DNA of 33,091 nucleotides from a virus, in the UHGV virus genome UHGV-0073014. One strand, 5' to 3'. Each line of letters begins with the position of its first letter. Position 1 is the stretch's first letter. Position numbers and translations under genes: made by a program. The notes beneath the pieces were generated by a model. The model saw only the letters and a list, made by a program, of their open reading frames with translations. It made no database searches and had not been told where the DNA came from. Below are positions 50 to 23,697 of this stretch, in pieces.

Positions 50-1150
50 TCATTCCATTTCGAAATCATCAATCCTCACTTCAAGCTCCAGACTGGTCGT
101 AAAACCGTTATCCGGGCTGACGGTATGTGTCAGAGTCGTAATGGTCCATTCCGCATCATCTATCGGCGGTTTAAAGCCGCTGACCTTCACAGGCATTTCC
201 GTGTAGAGATCTGCCCGACCTTCCGCCAGTTGTAGCGAGAATGACGCAACGCCGCGTTGCAGGCGTTCCCACTGCATTTTCGCTGCCCGTTCAGCGTTGC
301 TCCGGTTGGCATAAGTGCGATTAAGTACCAGCACGTTTTTATCCGTACCCACCAGGTAATCGCCCTGCTTCGCTTCCGGCTCATTCTTCTGCTTCTTAGT
401 TCTGCGCTTACGCTTCACCGTGGTACTTTCTTTCTTCGCAGGTTCGCGGGTATGCAACCAGCTGGCAATTACGCCCGTGTAGGCTCCGCGATCTGCCAGG
501 GTAAAGCGGTGACTGTCGCCGTCCTTGCGTGTGATAGTGATCACTGGCAGTGGTTTACCAGTGGCGCTTTTGCCCTGCCCCTGCCGGATGAATAACAGAT
601 TGCCATTTTTCACCGACGCGATGGCACCGTACTGTCGCGCCAGCCGCATCAGAAAACTGCCGTCACTCTCATTAGTCTGGTCTATATGCTCCACGGGCTT
701 ATCCGACAGGTCTTTACCCAGTGCCATCTTCAGCTTGTGCCGCGCGGCTATTTCCTTCACCACTTCCCCGACGGTGGTCTTGTGCCACGACTTTTCACGA
801 CGGGTATTCAGCGTTTCCCGAAAATCAGCACTTCGCGCCCGGATAGTCAGGCGGTCCGGTGCGCCAGTGTGTTCAATCTCGTCCACCGTGAATGCCCCTT
901 TCGGGAAAAGCGGCTGCCCCTTCCAGCCCAGCGCCAGCGTAATGACCGCACCACGGCGCGGCAGCACGATTTTTCCGTCGGCGTCGTCCAGCTCCAGATC
1001 AAGCTGGTCTGCGTCAAAGCCCCGGTTATCCGTCAGCGTCAGCCCCATCAGGCGGTTGTCCAGCACAGTGGTGATATCCCTGCCTTCAATACTGATGCTG
1101 AATGCCGGAGTTTTGTTGCCTTTGTTAAGCAGTTCAGAGCTGAAATTCAC
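50..1150 (-). CDS. D: tail protein D (P2 gpD-like)
   Basis: 366 aa ORF at the position of P2 D, immediately downstream of U; translation recognised as gpD-like from memory. Confidence 0.85.
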   Translation of the reverse strand: MNFSSELLNKGNKTPAFSISIEGRDITTVLDNRLMGLTLTDNRGFDADQLDLELDDADGKIVLPRRGAVITLALGWKGQPLFPKGAFTVDEIEHTGAPDRLTIRARSADFRETLNTRREKSWHKTTVGEVVKEIAARHKLKMALGKDLSDKPVEHIDQTNESDGSFLMRLARQYGAIASVKNGNLLFIRQGQGKSATGKPLPVITITRKDGDSHRFTLADRGAYTGVIASWLHTREPAKKESTTVKRKRRTKKQKNEPEAKQGDYLVGTDKNVLVLNRTYANRSNAERAAKMQWERLQRGVASFSLQLAEGRADLYTEMPVKVSGFKPPIDDAEWTITTLTHTVSPDNGFTTSLELEVRIDDFEME

Positions 1151-1632
1151 GACAGCAGCCCTCCCACCGTTTTACTGATATCGTTTAATGCAGACGTTGC
1201 CGTATCCTGCAGATTATTCAGCTGTGCACTGAGATCACCGAACATATCGGACAGGGATTCATCTACCCGTTTTAGCGACAGAGTGAACTCAATCCGGCGC
1301 GGCATACCGTCGCGGAAAAACTCCGTTTTAGTCTGATTCAGTCCCTCAATCACATACATGCCGTAAATCGTGCCGCTGCCTTCAATCAGGGGCCATGCTT
1401 TTCCCTGTTCTGCCATCTGCTCCAGTGCCAGCAACGACAGCCTGCCGCCTGTTATCTCCGGCATCAGAACACCAGAAAGCGTCAGCATGTCGTTATCCGG
1501 TCCCAGAAACTGCGTTGACGGGCGTCGGTTAACCCGGCTGTTAGCCGCATGTCGCCAGCTGCGCTGATACTGCAGCTCCTGATACGGCACGGTGCGCAGC
1601 ATAAACACGTACAATCCCAGCACCATCATCAT
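1147..1632 (-). CDS. U: tail protein U (P2 gpU-like)
   Basis: 161 aa ORF, N-terminus MMMVLGLYVFMLRTVPYQELQ resembles P2 gpU; 4-nt overlaps with the D start and the T stop. Confidence 0.85.
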   Translation of the reverse strand: MMMVLGLYVFMLRTVPYQELQYQRSWRHAANSRVNRRPSTQFLGPDNDMLTLSGVLMPEITGGRLSLLALEQMAEQGKAWPLIEGSGTIYGMYVIEGLNQTKTEFFRDGMPRRIEFTLSLKRVDESLSDMFGDLSAQLNNLQDTATSALNDISKTVGGLLS

Positions 1633-4600
1633 GCGTCGTATCCCCCCTGATCGCTGTAGTTACTCCTGGCTTTTGCCTTCAGCCTGCGTTCACGTTCATC
1701 AAGCTGGCGGGCCACCTCCCGCGCAATATCCTGCGCACTTTGTCCTGGCTGCGTCTGAATGATGATCTGCGTCGGTGCCTCAATCCGTTGAACGGGCGGC
1801 ACAGTGGCTGCACGACTCACCATCGCTTCGCCGCCTTTCGCGGGAAGTGCCAAAGGATGTAACGGTGGAAGCTCTGTAGGCGCGGCAGCAACGCCCATCA
1901 TTCCGGCAACAACCGCAGCCAGTGCAGCGGTATTTCTCCGGCTGGTCACGTTTGCCGGGCCGTTGACAATTTCCGGCCCGTTTTCACCGACGATGCCAAA
2001 CTGCCCGCGCGGGATATAGCCGCCGCTGTCATACATCCCCGCAAAGCCATATCCCCATGACGGAAAACCACCCGATGGCATCATCACTTTACCGTCTGCA
2101 TTCACCGTCGCAGGTTGCTGACGCGTCACGCTTTCCGGCAGTTTCGCCTTTGCAGCCTCTTTACTGACAATGCCGAGCTTCTCCAGCAACCAGGAAACAC
2201 CGGATTTCAGGGAGTCCAGCGGATGCATGACCATATTCAGCCCTTCCGCCAGTGCCTCCCCGAATCGTCGCCCCATTGCCGCTGCGCTCTGCAGTTCGGC
2301 AGAGGTCGACTTAACGGGCGTCAGCAGATCAGTAAACCAGCCCCACAGCGCCTGTACTTTGTCGCCAATCCACTGAAACACAGGCTTAAGTGGTTCGAAT
2401 GCAGCACTGATGGGACCTGCCGCCGCTTTGAATCCTTCCACCACGCCACCGAGAAATGCGGTGATGGGTTGCCAGTATTTCCAGACAACCAGCGCCACAC
2501 CCGCCAGTGCAGTAACCACAAGACCTATCGGACTGAGCAGAGCACCTAACAGACCAGATATGGCATACAGGGCAACGCGCAGCATCGCCAGCGGACCAGA
2601 TGCAAGCACACGAAGCACCGCGCCTGCGGCAGACAAAGTACCCCCCCCCCGGCGCCAGCCAGTCCACCGCGCAGTACCGCCAGAGGATTCATAAACATCA
2701 CAGCAACAGCACGTAAAGCGGATAATCCAGACCGCAATAGTGCAACCGGCGCACCTGCTACAGTTTTCAGGACATTTCCCGTCAGTGATGCCGTACGGCG
2801 CAAAGACGACAACGGCGCAGTAAGTAAACCCGCTGCGTTACCCGATGAAGCAAGCCCGCGTCGCAGCACTGCCAGTGGAGCGCCAGCCAGCCAGGACAAC
2901 GCGCTGCTGGTTCGTGTTACTGCTGCCGTAACGGAAGGGAACGTTTTTATGCCCAGCACAGAGAATCCCAGACGGATGACTGCCAGCGGCCCCAGCACTG
3001 CAGCCAGCGCCACAGCCAAGGTGCCGAGGCCTACGGTAACCGCAGCCACAATAGCGGCTACTTTCATCAGTGTGCCCGTCAGTTCCGGGTTAGCTTCGAC
3101 CCAGCGACGCAACGCTCCCGTAACGCTTTTCACCGTGTACAGAATATCCATCAGCGGCTGGCGCAGCGTTTCGCCCAGGCTGCTGAAGGTATTCTGCGCT
3201 CCGGTTTTAACCAGCAACCACTGAGCAGAAAGTGAGTCCTTGTTGATGTCGGATTCTTTCTGCATGGAGCCGAGCGCATCATTGCCCGCTGTCAGTTTTA
3301 GCTGGCGCTGTAGTTCCGGCAGGTTGTTTGCCAGTTTCGCCGCGTCATCGCCAAACTCTTTACCAAACAACATGGTCATGGCAGACAGACGCTTGTCCTG
3401 CGGCAGTGCGTTTACCTTCTCCAGCACGCGCTGGATGGTTCCCATCGCATCCTTCGTCATCTGCTTTTCAATCACTTCAGGATTGAGTTTCAGCAGATTC
3501 ATCCCTTCAAAGAAACTCTTGCTTTGCATGGTGGCAATGGACAATTCACGCACCATCGCGTTTGCTGCACTGGCTGCAACCTCTGGCGCAGCGCCCAGTG
3601 TCAGGAAGGTGGAACCCAGCGCCGCCGCTTTACGATAATCCAGACGGTCAGCCACACCGCCCAGACGTTGCATCACATCAATGATGTCTGCCCCTTTCGA
3701 CATGGCGTTATCATCCAGATAGTTCAGCGCATCACCGAGCTGTTCAATATTGCGGGTGGGGATTTTGTAGAGCTGGGCGATTTTCCCCAGACTTTCTGAC
3801 AGTTCATCCGCTGGCAGCTCAAAGGCTGTTGCCGCCTTTGCTGCCGTACTGGCGAAGGCCAGCAGGTCACGTTTCTGATCTTCCCAGCTGTCGTCAGGGT
3901 TTGCGACGTTCATGCGCGCACCACCTTCAACCAGTGCAGCGAAGTCCACCGCACCGTTTTCCATCGGCAACTGTTCGCTGGCAGCCTTGATGGCATCCTG
4001 CATTTCATAAAAACGTGCAGTGCGGTTGCCATTATCGTCACGCAGACCATTGACCTGCTTTGCCACACCTTTCATGGCATCTTCCATGCTGGTATAGCTT
4101 TTTACTGCCGCCATCACTGGCGCACCCATTGCCAGCCCTGCAGCCGTGGTGGTGGCTCCGGCACCTGCAATACGATCACGCACCTCCAGCGAACGGGCAT
4201 AACTGGCACGCGCTGCATTCATCCTGCGCTGAGCTTCCCCCAGTCGCTTCAGCCGCGCCTCCTGTTTCGAAAGTTCCTGGTTATAACGTGATGTTTCACG
4301 GGCTAAACGGGCAGTTGCTCCCGCATCGTCTTTCGCAGAAATTCCCGCCCGGTACAGTTCAGCACGCACAAGCGCCGTCTGCTGCTGCAGCTTTTTCTGG
4401 CGTTCTTCCAGGCGCTGAACAGCCAGCCGTTGACGGCCCAGAGCAACAACCTGACGTTGCGAAGGCGGCCCCATCGCTCCCAGTTCCTGACTGAGCAAAT
4501 TTGCACGCTGGCGGGCATAGTTCAGCCTGTCGCCTAATTTCTGATTTTCTGCCTGCAGCTTTCGGAAGCTGTCCAGACTGCTCCCGGCCTGATCAAGCTG

Positions 4601-4732
4601 CTTTATTGCATCGCGGGATTTTTTGACAGCAGCAGCCAGTTCTCTTGAACTGGCCTGCGCAGATCGAAATGGGCGGGTGAGCTTGTCAACCGCATTAAGA
4701 ATGACCTGCAGACGCAGGTTGTTATCACTCAT
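1629..4732 (-). CDS. T: tail tape measure protein (gpT-like), reading frame broken at a G10 homopolymer
   Basis: Two long minus-strand ORFs (2546..4732 and 1629..2636) in different frames meet at the C10 run 2641..2650; coiled-coil-like N-terminal part and Gly/Ala-rich C-terminal part typical of tape measure; start overlaps the E' stop. Confidence 0.8.
2641..2650. repeat. C10/G10 homopolymer at the tape-measure frameshift point
   Basis: Ten consecutive C on the plus strand; removing 2 bases or adding 1 would join the two T reading frames. Confidence 0.95.
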
Positions 4733-4904
4733 CGTTGGCCCCGCTTCTCTGAATCGCTTTATACCGCCATTCCAGCACTTCGGTCAGCGGCATAACGTCA
4801 GTAACGGATGGCGGCCAGTGAAAAATGGTGGCGATATCTGCCACCAGATCGTCAACCGTCAGGCTGTCGGTAAACCGGCAAGCACCGACTTCTTCAACAA
4901 AAAA
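4725..4904 (-). CDS. E': E' extension, read after a -1 programmed frameshift from E (E+E' fusion spans 4725..5161)
   Basis: Slippery heptamer T-TTT-TTG on the coding strand (plus 4898..4904) in the correct phase; the -1 frame stays open to a TGA at 4725..4727, which overlaps the T start codon. Confidence 0.7.
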   Translation of the reverse strand, partial: FFVEEVGACRFTDSLTVDDLVADIATIFHWPPSVTDVMPLTEVLEWRYKAIQRSGANDE

Positions 4905-5161
4905 GTGACAACCTCAACCGACATGGCAGTGAGATCTGCCGGGTCCATCTCTGCAATTTCCTGTGCAGTCAGTGCCGGACTGGAGATGCGGGGGATCACG
5001 GTCATCATCGCGTTTACATCCATATCCATAATGGCCTGCAGGCGTGTACCGCGCAGCGCACCGGACTGCGGTTTACGCAGCACAATTTCGGTGATTTCTG
5101 TTTTACCGCGCTTGATGGGGGTATCCAGTTGAATGGTCTTTTCAGTCTGCTTATCGCTCAT
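4859..5161 (-). CDS. E: tail assembly chaperone E (P2 gpE-like)
   Basis: 100 aa ORF between FII and T, the position and size of P2 E. Confidence 0.85.
   Translation of the reverse strand: MSDKQTEKTIQLDTPIKRGKTEITEIVLRKPQSGALRGTRLQAIMDMDVNAMMTVIPRISSPALTAQEIAEMDPADLTAMSVEVVTFLLKKSVLAGLPTA
4898..4904 (-). other. -1 ribosomal frameshift slippery site T TTT TTG
   Basis: Coding-strand sequence ACT TTT TTG TTG read directly; known P2 E/E' mechanism. Confidence 0.7.
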
Positions 5162-7064: not shown

Positions 7065-7622
7065 TTAATTGCTCTTATTCGCCGGAAATTTTCTATAAAT
7101 GGTAGAAACGCCCACATCAAAAATCAGTGCAATACGCTGTCTTGATTCTCCAGCCTCAAGTAAACGCCCAATCTGTGCCCACTGTTCAGCTGTCAACTTA
7201 GGACGGCGTCCACCTACTCTACCTTTAGCACGAGCTGCAGCCAGCCCCGCCCTGGTACGTTCAACTATCAGTTCGCGTTCCATTTCAGCCAGGGCACCCA
7301 TGACATGAAAAAAGAAACGGCCCATTGGGGTGCTGGTATCAATACTGTCAGTCAGGCTTCGGAAATTCACGCCACGCTGGCGCAGCTCTTCTATCAGCGT
7401 AACGAGATGCCGCATACTGCGCCCCAGTCTGTCCAGCTTCCAGACAACCAGCGTGTCTCCTGCCGATAGTGTCCTGAGCAGCTTTTTCAGCCCCGGTCTG
7501 TCGGACTTGGTGCCACTGATTTTATCCTCAAAAATCCGCTCACATCCCGCGCAGTTCAGTGCATTACGTTGCAAATCGGTGTTCTGGTCATTTGTTGACA
7601 CGCGTACATAGCCAATAAGCAT
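7065..7622 (-). CDS. serine DNA invertase (Gin/Pin/Hin/Cin family)
   Basis: 185 aa, N-terminus MLIGYVRVSTNDQNTDLQ with the catalytic Ser context, C-terminal HTH; sits just outside an inverted-repeat-bounded segment. Confidence 0.95.
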   Translation of the reverse strand: MLIGYVRVSTNDQNTDLQRNALNCAGCERIFEDKISGTKSDRPGLKKLLRTLSAGDTLVVWKLDRLGRSMRHLVTLIEELRQRGVNFRSLTDSIDTSTPMGRFFFHVMGALAEMERELIVERTRAGLAAARAKGRVGGRRPKLTAEQWAQIGRLLEAGESRQRIALIFDVGVSTIYRKFPANKSN

Positions 7623-7624
7623 AA

Positions 7625-7632
7625 CCCCCCCC
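7625..7632. repeat. C8/G8 homopolymer 2 nt upstream of the invertase start codon
   Basis: Coding strand reads GGGGGGGG-TT-ATG. Confidence 0.9.
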
Positions 7633-7688
7633 TGAATAAAAACCGGAGATGATGCCAGTTAGCCGTTATCTCTGCATTTTCATAAACG

Positions 7689-7722
7689 TTGGTTTGGGAG
7701 AAGCGGCAAAACGGAATGTAGG
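7689..7722. repeat. left inverted repeat / invertase crossover site
   Basis: TTGGTTTGGGAGAAGCGGCAAAACGGAATGTAGG, exact reverse complement of 9236..9269; encodes the shared motif [11 protein letters not shown]. Confidence 0.85.
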
Positions 7723-8056
7723 TAACGGGCAAAACCAAATTCCGGATATGGCGGCGTTTGCCAGTTCACTTTCATCAACGGGTTTTCAAAAACTCCCTTC
7801 AGGTCTGATTATTCAGTGGGGTATTGTCAGTGGAGCATCAAACTATACGGTGACTTACCCGGTAACATTCCCAAATCGTTCACTTGCGCTGTTGGCTGTG
7901 CCACATACAACGTCGGTGGCTAGTATATCTGCAATGGGCATAGCGAACTGTTCTGATATCAGCAAATCACAGTTCTATATAATTGTTGGCGGTATATCTC
8001 AGGGAGAAATTGTCAAACATGAAAGGTCCTGTTTTTGGGTAGCAATCGGTGTATAG
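7723..8056 (+). CDS. alternative (currently unexpressed) tail-fibre C-terminal module
   Basis: Open frame continuing from the crossover motif ([10 protein letters not shown]...) parallel to the H C-terminus (GTGENQIPDM...); no promoter or start of its own. Confidence 0.7.
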
Positions 8057-8064
8057 GTATATCT

Positions 8065-8460
8065 ATGATTTATTTCTCAAAATCGACTAATGGTTTTTTC
8101 TTTGATGGTATAAACAGCGGCATGCCTGCTGACATTGTTGAGATAAGTACAGACTTATACAATGAATTAATTGCCGGACAGCAGGAAGGGGGTAAATTAA
8201 TCACGTCAGATGAAAATGGTTTACCGGTACTGAAATCTCCGGCGATTGATTATGTCGCACGTGCTGAAAATCAGCGAATGCAGTTACTTGCTCATGCCGA
8301 TAATGTCACAGCTGACTGGCGGGTGGAATTAATGCTTGGTGATATCAGCAGTACAGATAAAGAAAAACTATCTGCCTGGATGGACTACAAAAAAGAAGTA
8401 AAAGCCGTCGACACTTCGACGGCTCCTGAGATTAGCTGGCCTGAGTTACCGGAGATGTAG
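8065..8460 (+). CDS. tail-fibre assembly protein, partner of the alternative module
   Basis: About 131 aa; C-terminal DTSTAPEISWPELP motif shared with the convergent gene 8432..8875. Confidence 0.7.
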   Translation: MIYFSKSTNGFFFDGINSGMPADIVEISTDLYNELIAGQQEGGKLITSDENGLPVLKSPAIDYVARAENQRMQLLAHADNVTADWRVELMLGDISSTDKEKLSAWMDYKKEVKAVDTSTAPEISWPELPEM

Positions 8461-8875
8461 GCCATTCAATATCTGGAGCACTGGAGGTATCCACCAGTTC
8501 CAGTGCGTCCAGGTAATCCAGCCACAAATTATATTGCGCCAGTTCCTCACCTTTCAGACGACCAATAGCTGCTTTGCCAGGCCATTGCTTACTGTTCATG
8601 TATTCGTTAGCCTGGTTAATTAGTAGCTGTCTTTCTGATTCAGTAATTTCAATAAGCTCTTCATGCGTGGGTGGAGGAATATCTGCCCACGCAGGCAGCC
8701 CATCATCTCCGGCAATACGGATTTTTCCTTGTGGCGGTTCAGCCATAAACTCACTGATAATATTTTGATTTACTTCCTTTGCGTCTGATAAATCCCATCC
8801 CTCTGATTTATATTTATCAATCATATCCACAGGGAAAAAAGCATTATGCCTTGCGCTATAAACATATTTGTGCAT
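8432..8875 (-). CDS. tail-fibre assembly protein (gpG-like), expressed orientation
   Basis: Directly downstream of H; conserved C-terminal motif DTSSAPDIEWP. Confidence 0.8.
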   Translation of the reverse strand: MHKYVYSARHNAFFPVDMIDKYKSEGWDLSDAKEVNQNIISEFMAEPPQGKIRIAGDDGLPAWADIPPPTHEELIEITESERQLLINQANEYMNSKQWPGKAAIGRLKGEELAQYNLWLDYLDALELVDTSSAPDIEWPTSPVTQAS

Positions 8876-8895
8876 ATAAATCACCCTGAATAAAA

Positions 8896-10317
8896 TTACT
8901 CACCAACAGCCCACCAACTGTAATTCATCGATACTGTGGAGCTGGTTGATGCAGTTCTGTAAGCGGAATTAAAACCGGTTAGTGTTGGACCTTCTGCAGT
9001 CATCACGAATCCCCGTCCAGCGCCTAAAGGCGCACCACCATCACCAGAATGGGTAAGCATGGCGCAGTCCACTTTTTTAGGAAAAGGGATGCTGAATGTA
9101 ATTCTCATTGTTTGCGTCGATAATGTCGGCGTAATCGCACCACGACCATATTGCAGGATTTTCCCGTTGGGTAATTTCATCCATCCATCACCACTGGCAA
9201 AAGAGGTCATGTCCGGTATCTGATTTTCCCCTGTTCCTACATTCCGTTTTGCCGCTTCTCCCAAACCAAGGTATGTGAGAAGACCAGCTACATCCTTTCC
9301 ACTCAAATTAGTCAGCGTATTGTCCAGCGGTTGTTTACCTGCCAGCGCATTAAGCATTGTCGTGGCAAAGTTCGGGTCATTCCCCAGCGCTGCCGCCAGT
9401 TCGTTCAGTGTATCCAGTGCCGCAGGTGCAGAGCCCACCATTGCCGCAATCGCCGATTTCACAAAAGCCGTAGTGGCAATCTGTGTATTGTTGACCGACT
9501 GCGCCGCCGTGGGGGCTGTTGGCGTTCCGGTGAGTGCCGGACTCGACAACGGTGCTTTTAGTGCCAGCGCATTGTTAATGGTGGTACTGAAATTCGGATC
9601 ATTGTTAATGGCTGCGGCTATTTCTTTCAGCGTGTCCAGCGTGGCTGGCGCACCATTAATAAGGGCCGTCAGTGCCGCCTGTACAAACGCAGTGGTCGCA
9701 ACCTGCGTGGTATTATTCCCCGCCGCTGGCGTTGGCGCTTTTGGTTCTCCGGTAAATGTCGGATTATGTTTCTGCGCATACTGGGTATGAGGATCTTGTG
9801 CGGCAATGTGGTTTCTCATCTGGTCATCCACATACAGCTTTAATTCCAGGACTTTATCATCCACGTATTTACGGGTTGCCAGCACTACAGCAGGGTCGAT
9901 TTTCAGGATGATATTGTCCGTGCTGCTGGTAATCAGCACCATGCGCACGGTCTGGGTACGCCCGCTGCCTTCAGCCAGTTGCGGCTTATAGCTTTCCGGG
10001 CAGTTTCCCACGGCAATCAATGCCCCGGACTCATCAAACAGGCCCACTTCACGTATCCACCAACCGCCCTCGTTTTCAGGGATCACCTGTTCAGCAATAA
10101 TCTGGCTACTGTTCTGCGGGTCGATATAAAGCATATTCAGCGCAGCCCGGCGTTTCTCATTTACCAGTGCCGTCTGCTTTGCGTCCGGCGTTGGCAATAC
10201 TCCGCCGCCATCGCCCACCGCCATATGGGTAATTTTTAGCGGCACACCGAGCGCGGCGGCGCTGGCAAGTTTCGCCGCGCCAATATCCGTCAGCAGGGTA
10301 TAAAATTTTGTGCTCAT
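8896..10317 (-). CDS. H: tail fibre protein H (constant N-terminal part 9270..10317, variable C-terminal part inside the invertible segment)
   Basis: 473 aa ORF with a Thr/Ala-rich repetitive fibre region; the crossover repeat lies in-frame. Confidence 0.9.
   Translation of the reverse strand: MSTKFYTLLTDIGAAKLASAAALGVPLKITHMAVGDGGGVLPTPDAKQTALVNEKRRAALNMLYIDPQNSSQIIAEQVIPENEGGWWIREVGLFDESGALIAVGNCPESYKPQLAEGSGRTQTVRMVLITSSTDNIILKIDPAVVLATRKYVDDKVLELKLYVDDQMRNHIAAQDPHTQYAQKHNPTFTGEPKAPTPAAGNNTTQVATTAFVQAALTALINGAPATLDTLKEIAAAINNDPNFSTTINNALALKAPLSSPALTGTPTAPTAAQSVNNTQIATTAFVKSAIAAMVGSAPAALDTLNELAAALGNDPNFATTMLNALAGKQPLDNTLTNLSGKDVAGLLTYLGLGEAAKRNVGTGENQIPDMTSFASGDGWMKLPNGKILQYGRGAITPTLSTQTMRITFSIPFPKKVDCAMLTHSGDGGAPLGAGRGFVMTAEGPTLTGFNSAYRTASTSSTVSMNYSWWAVGE
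9236..9269. repeat. right inverted repeat / invertase crossover site
   Basis: Exact reverse complement of 7689..7722, inside the tail-fibre H coding sequence. Confidence 0.85.
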
Positions 10318-21588: not shown

Positions 21589-22650
21589 TTAATATTCAAA
21601 ATTATTTTCTTCAATAGAGAACTCAATCCCTCGGGATAACTTATCAATATTCACATCAAATGCGATATCTGTTAATTCACCATCCTCGATTTCATACATA
21701 ACTTCAATTTCAATATCGAAACTAATCTCTTGAACTTCAGTTCGTGTGGTTGTCTCCATTGGAATCATTACTTTATCTTCGCTATCCCAATACCCATTAT
21801 TAAAGTCTGGACCAGAAACAGTAACTTCAAAATCTACAGAAACAGAGAAGGTCGCTAGACAATAATTATTGTTAATCTTAATTATTGATGGTTCAAAGTC
21901 ATCAATATTGACGACTTCAAATGAATCCAATTCAGCGTCTTCCCAAGTTGAAACGTTATATCCATCGGCATCATTGAGTTGGGCAATTACGTCCGCTCTT
22001 ATGTCTTCACGTTTGCTTTCGATAAACTGCATCAATTTATTACTTAATTCGTTTGTATGCGTATTGTATTCACCTAGAAACTTATCAAGTGAATCAATTT
22101 GATGAAGATTGTTTTTACCATCACAATAATTTTTTAAGTCACTATCCTCAGAAATGATATACACATCTTCATCATTAACAAATCGCTCTACCGCAGCTAA
22201 AGTGATTGCATCAGGAAACTCACTTTTTTTCTTATTTTGCCCAAATGGTGGTTCTTTGCCAAAGTATTTATCTAAAACCTCATTAAGATCTATTACTTCT
22301 ATTGTAGCTAATTTGGCGTGACATCCTTTCAAAAAATCATCAAAAACTTTTTGTGCTGCTTCGTGAATTTCATGTTCGTTAAATTGCTGAAAAAAACCAT
22401 GGAGCGGTCCATTATCAATACTATTCAAAAGCCTAGCTTTTCTTTGTACTGTGTTTATAGCCTGCAGAGCATCCTTTATTGATTCCTCTATTTTACCTTT
22501 TACTTCTCTCTCTACAACTGTAGTTGTAATTAAGACTAAATCACCTTTCGCACATAATTCATGGAAAGCTTTAAATGCTACCCCCTCAAAATGAAGACCA
22601 GCCTTTACGTACGTTTGTGTGTCAATAAATACCTTATTTGTTTTAAGCAT
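21589..22650 (-). CDS. PIN-like-domain protein with acidic beta-rich C-terminal domain; candidate defence/cargo gene
   Basis: 353 aa; N-terminus KVFIDTQTYV...LVLITTTVVEREVKGKIEE...EFPDAITLAAV...DVYIISEDSD fits a PIN-like nuclease pattern (conserved D, E, D); AT-rich; sits between portal Q and cos; candidate sigma70 promoter TTGATT-N17-TAATCT upstream. Confidence 0.6.
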   Translation of the reverse strand: MLKTNKVFIDTQTYVKAGLHFEGVAFKAFHELCAKGDLVLITTTVVEREVKGKIEESIKDALQAINTVQRKARLLNSIDNGPLHGFFQQFNEHEIHEAAQKVFDDFLKGCHAKLATIEVIDLNEVLDKYFGKEPPFGQNKKKSEFPDAITLAAVERFVNDEDVYIISEDSDLKNYCDGKNNLHQIDSLDKFLGEYNTHTNELSNKLMQFIESKREDIRADVIAQLNDADGYNVSTWEDAELDSFEVVNIDDFEPSIIKINNNYCLATFSVSVDFEVTVSGPDFNNGYWDSEDKVMIPMETTTRTEVQEISFDIEIEVMYEIEDGELTDIAFDVNIDKLSRGIEFSIEENNFEY

Positions 22651-22775
22651 ACTAATCCTAATAAGTTTTAAGATCCGCTACAATTGTTTATGTTTATTTT
22701 TTATCAATAATCATACGTAGTTAAGATTATCCATGTCGAAAAATTAAATCAACTTCAATTTATCCTTAAGCGCGC

Positions 22776-22794
22776 GCTCGTATCCCCGCCACGC
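22776..22794 (-). other. cos-like cohesive-end sequence
   Basis: Minus strand reads GGCGTGGCGGGGATACGAG, close to the P2/186 19-nt cohesive end (GGCG(A/T)GGCGGGGAAAGCA-), recalled from memory; GC-rich patch within AT-rich cargo. Confidence 0.6.
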
Positions 22795-22843
22795 CTGCCC
22801 GCTTTGTGTAGTGGTTTTCATGCACCTGCATGACATAAGCAAA

Positions 22844-22863
22844 AGCCCGCCAGCTCTGGCGGG
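22844..22863 (-). terminator. Rho-independent terminator for minus-strand transcription from the HNH gene
   Basis: GCCCGCCA-GAGC-TGGCGGGC followed by TTTTGCTT on the minus strand. Confidence 0.6.
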
Positions 22864-22977
22864 CATCAGCAAAAACGATCCTCAAACGATCATGCGATTT
22901 CATGCGGCATAGACATGCGTTGGCAAAAATGCACGAAATACTCAGCTTATAGGAAATGGTCTTTTTCCAACCTCCAG

Positions 22978-23697
22978 TTAGCCAAAGCAGAAACCAATAT
23001 TGCAATTTGAAACTCCACAGTTGTGAAATTGATGTGGACCGACTCTTAGCTTGTGTTCGTCTCCTACAATCCGAGTCCCCTTAACCAACATATCTAATCT
23101 TTCCACAATCAATCTTTCAGGCGCATCAACTTTAATAATTAAACGAGGACCTTTCCTTTTTTCTATAATAGTTATTCTAGGACCGACAACCTGAACATCC
23201 CAATGCCTTGCACTACATACCCACTCATTCTTAATTAATTCAAGATTAACAATACCTTGACTATCGTAAAATTTACCCGAAATAAGAAAAGCATTATTTT
23301 CTTTTTCAATGGTTAACAATGGCTCATTTTGAAACATTATTGGTACAGTACAGGATTCAAACGTCGCACCACCAAATATTATTGTTGGATGCCTATCAGA
23401 AAAGTCCAATATATCGGCCACATTCCCTTTTTGTAAGGCTGCAGGAGATTCCATTGCTTTAATGATTTTCTCTTTAGAGTAAAGACGTTTCGTTACTTTC
23501 GCATGACACGTAGGACAAAGTAGTGCTATTGCATTTGGAGAGTGCTCCTTTGCATCAGCGTATGTGGGAATTACATGCTCATACTCAACAATGGGAGAAG
23601 CACAAACAACGCAACCGAAGCCACAGCGCTGCCTTACCTCCAGTTTTACAGGTTCAGGAATTGTTCTAGATAACCCATGCTTGTTAATAGTTGTCAT
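22978..23697 (-). CDS. HNH-endonuclease-domain protein with unknown C-terminal domain; candidate defence gene
   Basis: 239 aa; CGFGCVVC...EYEHVIP...NAIALLCPTCHAKVTK fits the HNH zinc-finger nuclease motif; AT-rich; SD AAGGTAAGG before the ATG; lies between the SOS operon and cos. Confidence 0.65.
   Translation of the reverse strand: MTTINKHGLSRTIPEPVKLEVRQRCGFGCVVCASPIVEYEHVIPTYADAKEHSPNAIALLCPTCHAKVTKRLYSKEKIIKAMESPAALQKGNVADILDFSDRHPTIIFGGATFESCTVPIMFQNEPLLTIEKENNAFLISGKFYDSQGIVNLELIKNEWVCSARHWDVQVVGPRITIIEKRKGPRLIIKVDAPERLIVERLDMLVKGTRIVGDEHKLRVGPHQFHNCGVSNCNIGFCFG

Follow-up and report, generated by a model that had tools for sequence, protein, structure and literature searches.

A 26-nucleotide insertion around a G10 tract probably disables the tape-measure gene of an Escherichia coli prophage

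The tail tape-measure gene of a 186/P2-like prophage is interrupted by a block of 26 nucleotides, built around a run of ten G, that is missing from all of its relatives. We conclude that a recent, private, frameshifting insertion of 26 bp has probably disabled this gene, and that the prophage would make no tails barring rare revertants or slippage events. As it stands the case matters little, representing either another indel-broken prophage gene or an assembly blemish. Automated annotation will list two tail genes where the prophage has one broken gene.

Results

Identity of the prophage and of the interrupted gene

The window, by which we mean the whole stretch of 33,091 nucleotides that was analysed (UHGV-0073014), is a Peduoviridae prophage of the 186/P2 type, integrated beside ybjL in an E. 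coli chromosome that was assembled from a metagenome. At the prophage border the contig runs ogr, then ybjL, ybjM, grxA, ybjC, nfsA, rimK, ybjN, potF, which marks the host sequence as an E. coli chromosome, and E. coli Ec15103 carries a 97%-identical prophage at the same chromosomal site. Prophages of the 186 type can be induced through the SOS response. Head, lysis, replication and CI/CII immunity genes are all recognisable. On the minus strand the tail operon reads sheath, tube, E, E', T, U, D and then ogr, so that the interrupted gene sits between the chaperone genes E/E' and gpU/gpD, as a gpT-type tape-measure gene does. The features of this region are:

50..1150, minus strand, gpD-like late control/tail protein (PF05954), intact
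1147..1632, minus strand, gpU-like tail protein (PF06995), intact
1629..2636, minus strand, downstream tape-measure reading frame, 335 codons from TTG 2636
2546..4732, minus strand, upstream tape-measure ORF, 728 aa from ATG 4732 to the stop at 2546
2633..2658, minus strand, 26-nt insertion, CTGGCGCCGGGGGGGGGGTACTTTGT, missing from all relatives, with G10 as its core
4862..5161, minus strand, gpE tail assembly chaperone (PF10109), intact
4898..4904, minus strand, T_TTT_TTG slippery heptamer for the E/E+E' -1 frameshift, conserved

By homology, the broken gene is a disrupted copy of the P2 gpT-type tape-measure family. PF10145 (PhageMin_Tail) was found at residues 246-457 of the 728-aa product (E=1e-18), and this product shares a 90% cluster with 1025-aa entries annotated as 'phage tail tape measure protein'. 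At the DNA level the gene is 93.5-97.9% identical, at 100% coverage, to the annotated tape-measure genes among the top matches listed, which came from E. coli prophages, Escherichia phage 500465-1 and Klebsiella phage 4LV2017. Upstream, the E' frame reaches 4728 and overlaps the start of the tape-measure gene, and the E and E' proteins are 100% identical to their Ec15103 prophage counterparts. Elsewhere in the prophage, between the portal and replication genes, a PIN-domain protein (353 aa) and an HNH endonuclease (239 aa) are encoded at 21589-23697 on the minus strand; they occupy a cargo (moron) position and are 99.7-100% identical to the proteins of the Ec15103 prophage.

A G10 tract divides the gene into two frames

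The first-pass annotation had claimed that a G10 homopolymer at 2641-2650 splits the tape-measure gene into two frames, and both the sequence and its ORFs confirm this. The plus strand carries C10 at this position, equivalent to G10 on the coding (minus) strand, within the coding-strand sequence GGTGGACTGGCTGGCGCCGGGGGGGGGGTACTTTGTCTGCCGCAGG. No homopolymer in the window is longer. Runs of G10 or C10 are expected at 0.04 per window, and at least one occurred in 2 of 100 dinucleotide-preserving shuffles. The run begins at coding nucleotide 2083, in codon 695 of the gene, and it is here that the overlapping 728-codon and 335-codon ORFs meet, the downstream frame being offset by -1 relative to the upstream frame. 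The 728-aa product thus consists of ~697 native residues followed by ~31 out-of-frame residues and a stop. The frame ending at 1629 stays open back to ~2660, with a gene-caller start at GTG 2585 that gives 318 aa, and carries the native C-terminal third of the protein, including the hydrophobic segment LLGALLSPIGLVVTALAGVALVVW and the conserved C-terminus. A single continuous ORF across the N- and C-terminal parts is therefore lacking from the window copy (728 aa plus 318 or 335 aa).

The tract length was also edited in silico. G8 gave a single ORF of 1033 aa and G11 one of 1034 aa, as the earlier prediction of one ORF of about 1030 codons for these lengths had it; G7, G9, G10 and G12 terminated early in every case.

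The tract is the core of an insertion missing from all relatives

Intact relatives have a gene of 3078 nt (1025 codons), compared with 3104 nt in the window copy, and in alignments to these relatives the whole size difference fell in one 26-nt block at 2633-2658. Its placement is ambiguous by only 3 nt (the trinucleotide CTG), and the insertion allele is marked by the junction k-mers GGACTGGCTGGCGCCGGGG and GGGTACTTTGTCTGCCGCAGG. At this site the relatives read ...GGACTGG|CYGCCRCAGG..., with the G run wholly absent, and G10 was present in none of the relatives fetched. The clearest comparison was with E. coli ATCC 8739, in which the 150-nt left flank and the 150-nt right flank are both matched at 100% and directly abut. 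Across window positions 1226-2938 (~1.7 kb) the insertion is the sole difference from this strain, and across 1226-3412 there is, besides the insertion, one substitution only. Deleting the 26 nt in silico produced a clean 1025-aa ORF.

These comparisons point to a pure and evolutionarily very recent insertion, rather than to a pre-existing homopolymer that changed length. The premise of a native tract of slipped length is accordingly dropped, given that no relative has a G tract here, and the native 1025-codon gene is regained by removing 26 nt rather than by altering the G count. One part of the proposal that a slipped-strand mutation makes the prophage tail-defective does survive: an inactivating mutation is most likely, in the form of a 26-nt insertion and not a slip of a native tract. 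Comparison with close relatives has in this way recast an apparent slipped homopolymer as an insertion, which changes the target of a read pile-up.

The tape-measure gene is also a mosaic with respect to ATCC 8739. Over 2.2 kb at the 3' side, in T/U (1226-3412), the two are nearly identical, whereas ~19% of positions differ in the 5' 400 nt of the gene (compared region 3900-4732), a pattern that indicates recombination inside the gene.

Distribution of the insertion allele

Among 5,426 complete E. coli genomes, no record that spans the insertion was recovered with an 80-nt probe whose flanks stayed just under the megablast word size. Complete E. coli genomes contain ~1,000 intact 1025-codon copies of the gene, all without the insertion. 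Nor was it found in 50,697 phage records by a sensitive search. Public collections were then scanned with a gapped pattern that permitted any tract length: GTDB species genomes and JGI metagenomes gave six chance matches in unrelated genes only (one example being LAPGGYFV, a methyltransferase-like motif), and IMG/VR gave zero matches. No in-frame variant of the insertion was recovered by a protein search with the repaired region, which returned relatives, mostly fragments, without the inserted residues. In a collection of 15 billion proteins, the exact 728-aa and 318-aa products occurred in one contig only. This sole contig with the insertion is a 76-kb SPAdes metagenome contig (ENA ERZ1741868 NODE_123, coverage 12.7). 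Look-up of the contig gives two samples, which cannot count as independent, and a literature search on ENA accession ERZ1741868 gave no match.

Origin of the inserted bases

Searches of the window and 10 kb of further contig with k-mers of 9-12 nt turned up no source for the 26 nt, and local alignment within +/-300 nt on both strands yielded none that was convincing. Tandem Repeats Finder detected no tandem repeat in 2300-3100. Only an 11-mer of the insert, CTGGCTGGCGC, recurs, in an upstream Leu-Ala-Gly repeat, and a reverse-complement 9-mer lies 270 nt away (20/2000 shuffles; not significant after four tests). When the insert was set in register against the adjacent 30-mer, 15 of 26 positions matched and five of eight substitutions were to G (shuffle p ~0.06); that the insert is a degenerate copy of the adjacent 30 nt is suggestive only, a lead and no finding. 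An origin in an adapter, template-switch or RACE oligonucleotide seems unlikely, as the strand on which GTAC lies relative to the run does not fit. Non-templated insertion of 26 nt is unusual for E. coli.

The insertion lies within the region encoding repeated PLAxLRxGL motifs, and a second private insertion was encountered at the same junction (window 2632/2633). E. coli F719 (NZ_OY754392.1) carries a perfect in-frame tandem duplication of the very 30-mer with which the insert was compared, CTGCCGCAGGCGCGGTGCTTCGTGTGCTTG, at ~2509-2568 of the F719 sequence examined (L014), unique among the 5,426 E. coli genomes. In that prophage the tape-measure gene has, in addition, been fused with a tail gene by a deletion, and these genes are annotated as pseudogenes. 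Two private insertions at one junction of a 3-kb gene suggest a local hotspot, possibly of slippage or of break repair.

State of the remaining prophage and of the assembly

In tblastn alignments to the window, the remaining 45 proteins encoded by the Ec15103 prophage were either full length and gap-free or differed only in the variable tail-fibre and immunity modules. At the DNA level, comparison of the other 20 kb showed a single 1-nt gap, and host genes called beside the prophage are of ordinary lengths. Neither these 45 phage genes nor the host genes on the flank of the same assembly showed another frameshift. Because the other phage genes are full length and the host genes ordinary, the assembly does not appear generally prone to indel or homopolymer errors. 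The tape-measure gene appears, on these alignments, to be the sole broken gene among the phage genes compared. General poly-G contamination of the assembly was ruled out, because the one further G run, at 7625-7632, also occurs naturally as an allele in three complete genomes.

That second run is of interest in its own right. It reads C8 on the plus strand and G8 on the minus strand, and lies directly upstream of the ATG at 7622 of the tail-fibre invertase, between a Shine-Dalgarno-like AGG and this start codon. Run length before the invertase gene varies naturally, being G8 here and in the three complete genomes (100% identity), G9 in J31, G6 in SFE8 and 13P477T, and G5 in Ec15103. Given this polymorphism, tuning by slippage is more plausible for the G8 run than for the G10 run of the tape-measure gene. 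The surrounding region 7065-10317 is predicted to be an invertible tail-fibre module, a Gin/Cin-type host-range switch, with these parts:

7065-7622, tail-fibre serine invertase (Resolvase PF00239 and HTH_7)
7688-7870, plus strand, alternative H C-terminal cassette fragment
8035-8460, plus strand, and 8432-8884, minus strand, opposed Caudo_TAP tail-fibre assembly genes
8896-10317, minus strand, fibre gene H

Discussion

Predicted consequences of the insertion

An insertion of 26 nt, a length not divisible by 3, takes ribosomes out of the native frame near codon 697. The C-terminal ~330 residues, with the hydrophobic segment and the conserved C-terminus, would then not be joined to the ruler. 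In lambda gpH and P2 gpT the ruler acts as one continuous chain and nonsense mutants make no tails; tail assembly should therefore be abolished here, and a prophage with no functional tape measure would be expected to give no tails and no infectious particles. Some leakiness is conceivable. DNA replication slippage could lengthen the tract to G11 in one step, or shorten it to G8; ribosomes could slip by -1 on G_GGG_GGG; or RNA polymerase could add one extra G in the run. Any of these routes would yield a protein of 1033 or 1034 aa, in which a Gly-rich AGAGGG(G)TLS loop is added where two repeat motifs adjoin. The tract is hypermutable by its chemistry, yet it is a mutational accident rather than a selected device.

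Weighing of alternative explanations

An ordinary, recent inactivating mutation is the most likely explanation; an assembly error is less likely, and an evolved on/off switch is unsupported. In the case of a sequencing or assembly artefact, the 26-nt block would be absent from the DNA, or the tract would really be G11 or G8 and the gene intact with an insertion of eight or nine amino acids. We regard such an artefact as unlikely, though far from negligible. The allele is known from a single SPAdes metagenome contig with k-mer coverage of ~12.7, neither donor nor mechanism was found for the 26 nt, and five of the eight substitutions relative to the adjacent 30-mer are X to G, which recalls dark-cycle G calls, a weak resemblance (p ~0.06). 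Base calling is difficult in long G runs, and no spot of the window is more error-prone than G10 on any platform; an in-frame G11 or G8 as the real tract length was also counted against the frameshift reading. However, 16 non-G bases between perfect native flanks are beyond what an assembler can invent, and are left unexplained by a simple homopolymer miscount; 26 novel bases are likewise not producible by mis-joining true reads. Moreover, poly-G artefacts extend to read ends rather than occurring mid-read, graph assemblers follow the majority path, and there were no frameshifts in the other 43 kb of contig examined. The insertion is thus probably real in the DNA.

The proposal that the tract is a slippage-prone switch of tail production found no comparative support, the tract being unique to one contig. 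As a contingency locus or recoding site it would set a low or switchable, advantageous tail output by slippage between G10 and G11, by -1 frameshifting on G_GGG_GGG, or by transcriptional slippage, and we consider this very improbable. A run of ten G is long enough for hypermutability and lies within a coding region, and the frame is restored by a shift of exactly -1, with G_GGG_GGG in the zero frame, fitting X_XXY_YYZ, and continuation in the -1 frame. Motifs with GGG as YYY are not known to belong to the classic efficient -1 frameshift motifs. No stimulatory RNA structure stood out downstream of G10, where the fold was no better than that of shuffled sequences (MFE -48.9 kcal/mol, shuffle mean -52.5, z = +0.95). 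Phage structural genes with poly-G tracts of 7-11 are documented, as are homopolymer contingency loci of coliphages (bioRxiv 10.1101/2025.10.21.683753), and the thymidine kinase of herpes simplex virus (HSV) offers a case in which a G run supports compensatory frameshifting at a low level (PMC5009743). Against these precedents, the -1 site is conserved in none of the homologues, and neither conservation nor length polymorphism of the tract was seen among the relatives and collections searched. There has also been no time for selection, because the flanks are identical to those of the intact ATCC 8739 allele.

A contingency locus might instead have been born in one step, so that most cells would be tail-less and G11, G8 or -1 slips would give an infectious minority. 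The chance of this is slight. If true, a newborn contingency locus would offer a snapshot of the origin of a phase-variable switch; a tract that was both real and length-variable would mean a hypermutable switch born in a single step in an enterobacterial prophage, and would be relevant to the suggestion, made recently, that contingency loci are used by phages. Least credible is a split but functional gene, whose 728-aa and 335-aa products would assemble non-covalently following re-initiation at TTG 2636. The two ORFs do overlap, the TTG 2636 ORF begins directly after the G run, and the run, 4 nt upstream of this codon, could conceivably act as a Shine-Dalgarno-like element. No relative has a split tape-measure gene, though, the intact copies all being single 1025-aa ORFs, and, as in lambda gpH and P2 gpT, the ruler would have to be continuous. 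A disabling insertion in an otherwise intact prophage accordingly remains our preferred explanation.

Comparison with known systems

The gene occupies the same place in the FI-FII-E-E'-T-U-D operon as P2 gpT and 186 gene T and shares PF10145 with them. It differs from this family in that its frame is interrupted by the 26-nt insertion at codon 692-700, whereas the relatives examined are all single 1025-codon ORFs. Within the same operon, the truly programmed frameshift is the T_TTT_TTG of gene E at 4904-4898. Like this P2 E/E+E' site (of the lambda G/GT type), which lies ~2.2 kb upstream of G10, the tract would involve a -1 shift on a homopolymeric heptamer. In contrast, the E/E' site is 100% conserved in relatives and gives two functional products, whereas G10 lacks conservation and reading through it in the zero frame gives a truncated product.

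Hypermutable poly-G and other contingency tracts are known from Fletchervirus receptor-binding proteins, T2 agt and T4 rIIA (bioRxiv 10.1101/2025.10.21.683753). The window tract resembles them as a long homopolymer inside a phage gene in which a slip of +/-1 toggles the frame. Those tracts, however, are conserved with measured length variation, whereas this one is found in one contig, in an essential tail gene, with no polymorphism. In HSV thymidine kinase, low-level compensatory frameshifting accompanies a G7 'savior indel' (reviewed in PMC5009743). There, as here, an indel in a G run inactivates a gene from which rare slippage could yield some full-length product; HSV is a eukaryotic virus under drug selection, whereas the window tract is without evident benefit and any slippage on it would be hypothetical. 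There is also a likeness to the frameshifted genes of defective or cryptic E. coli prophages, in which a single indel disables a structural gene, and public genomes hold other frameshifted fragments of the tape-measure family (P0029, P0044). Compared with such prophages, the remainder is intact here, and the lesion is a short insertion, neither a 1-nt slip nor a deletion. It nevertheless belongs to the known and ordinary class of indel-inactivated prophage genes, and any slippage on it would also be of a known kind.
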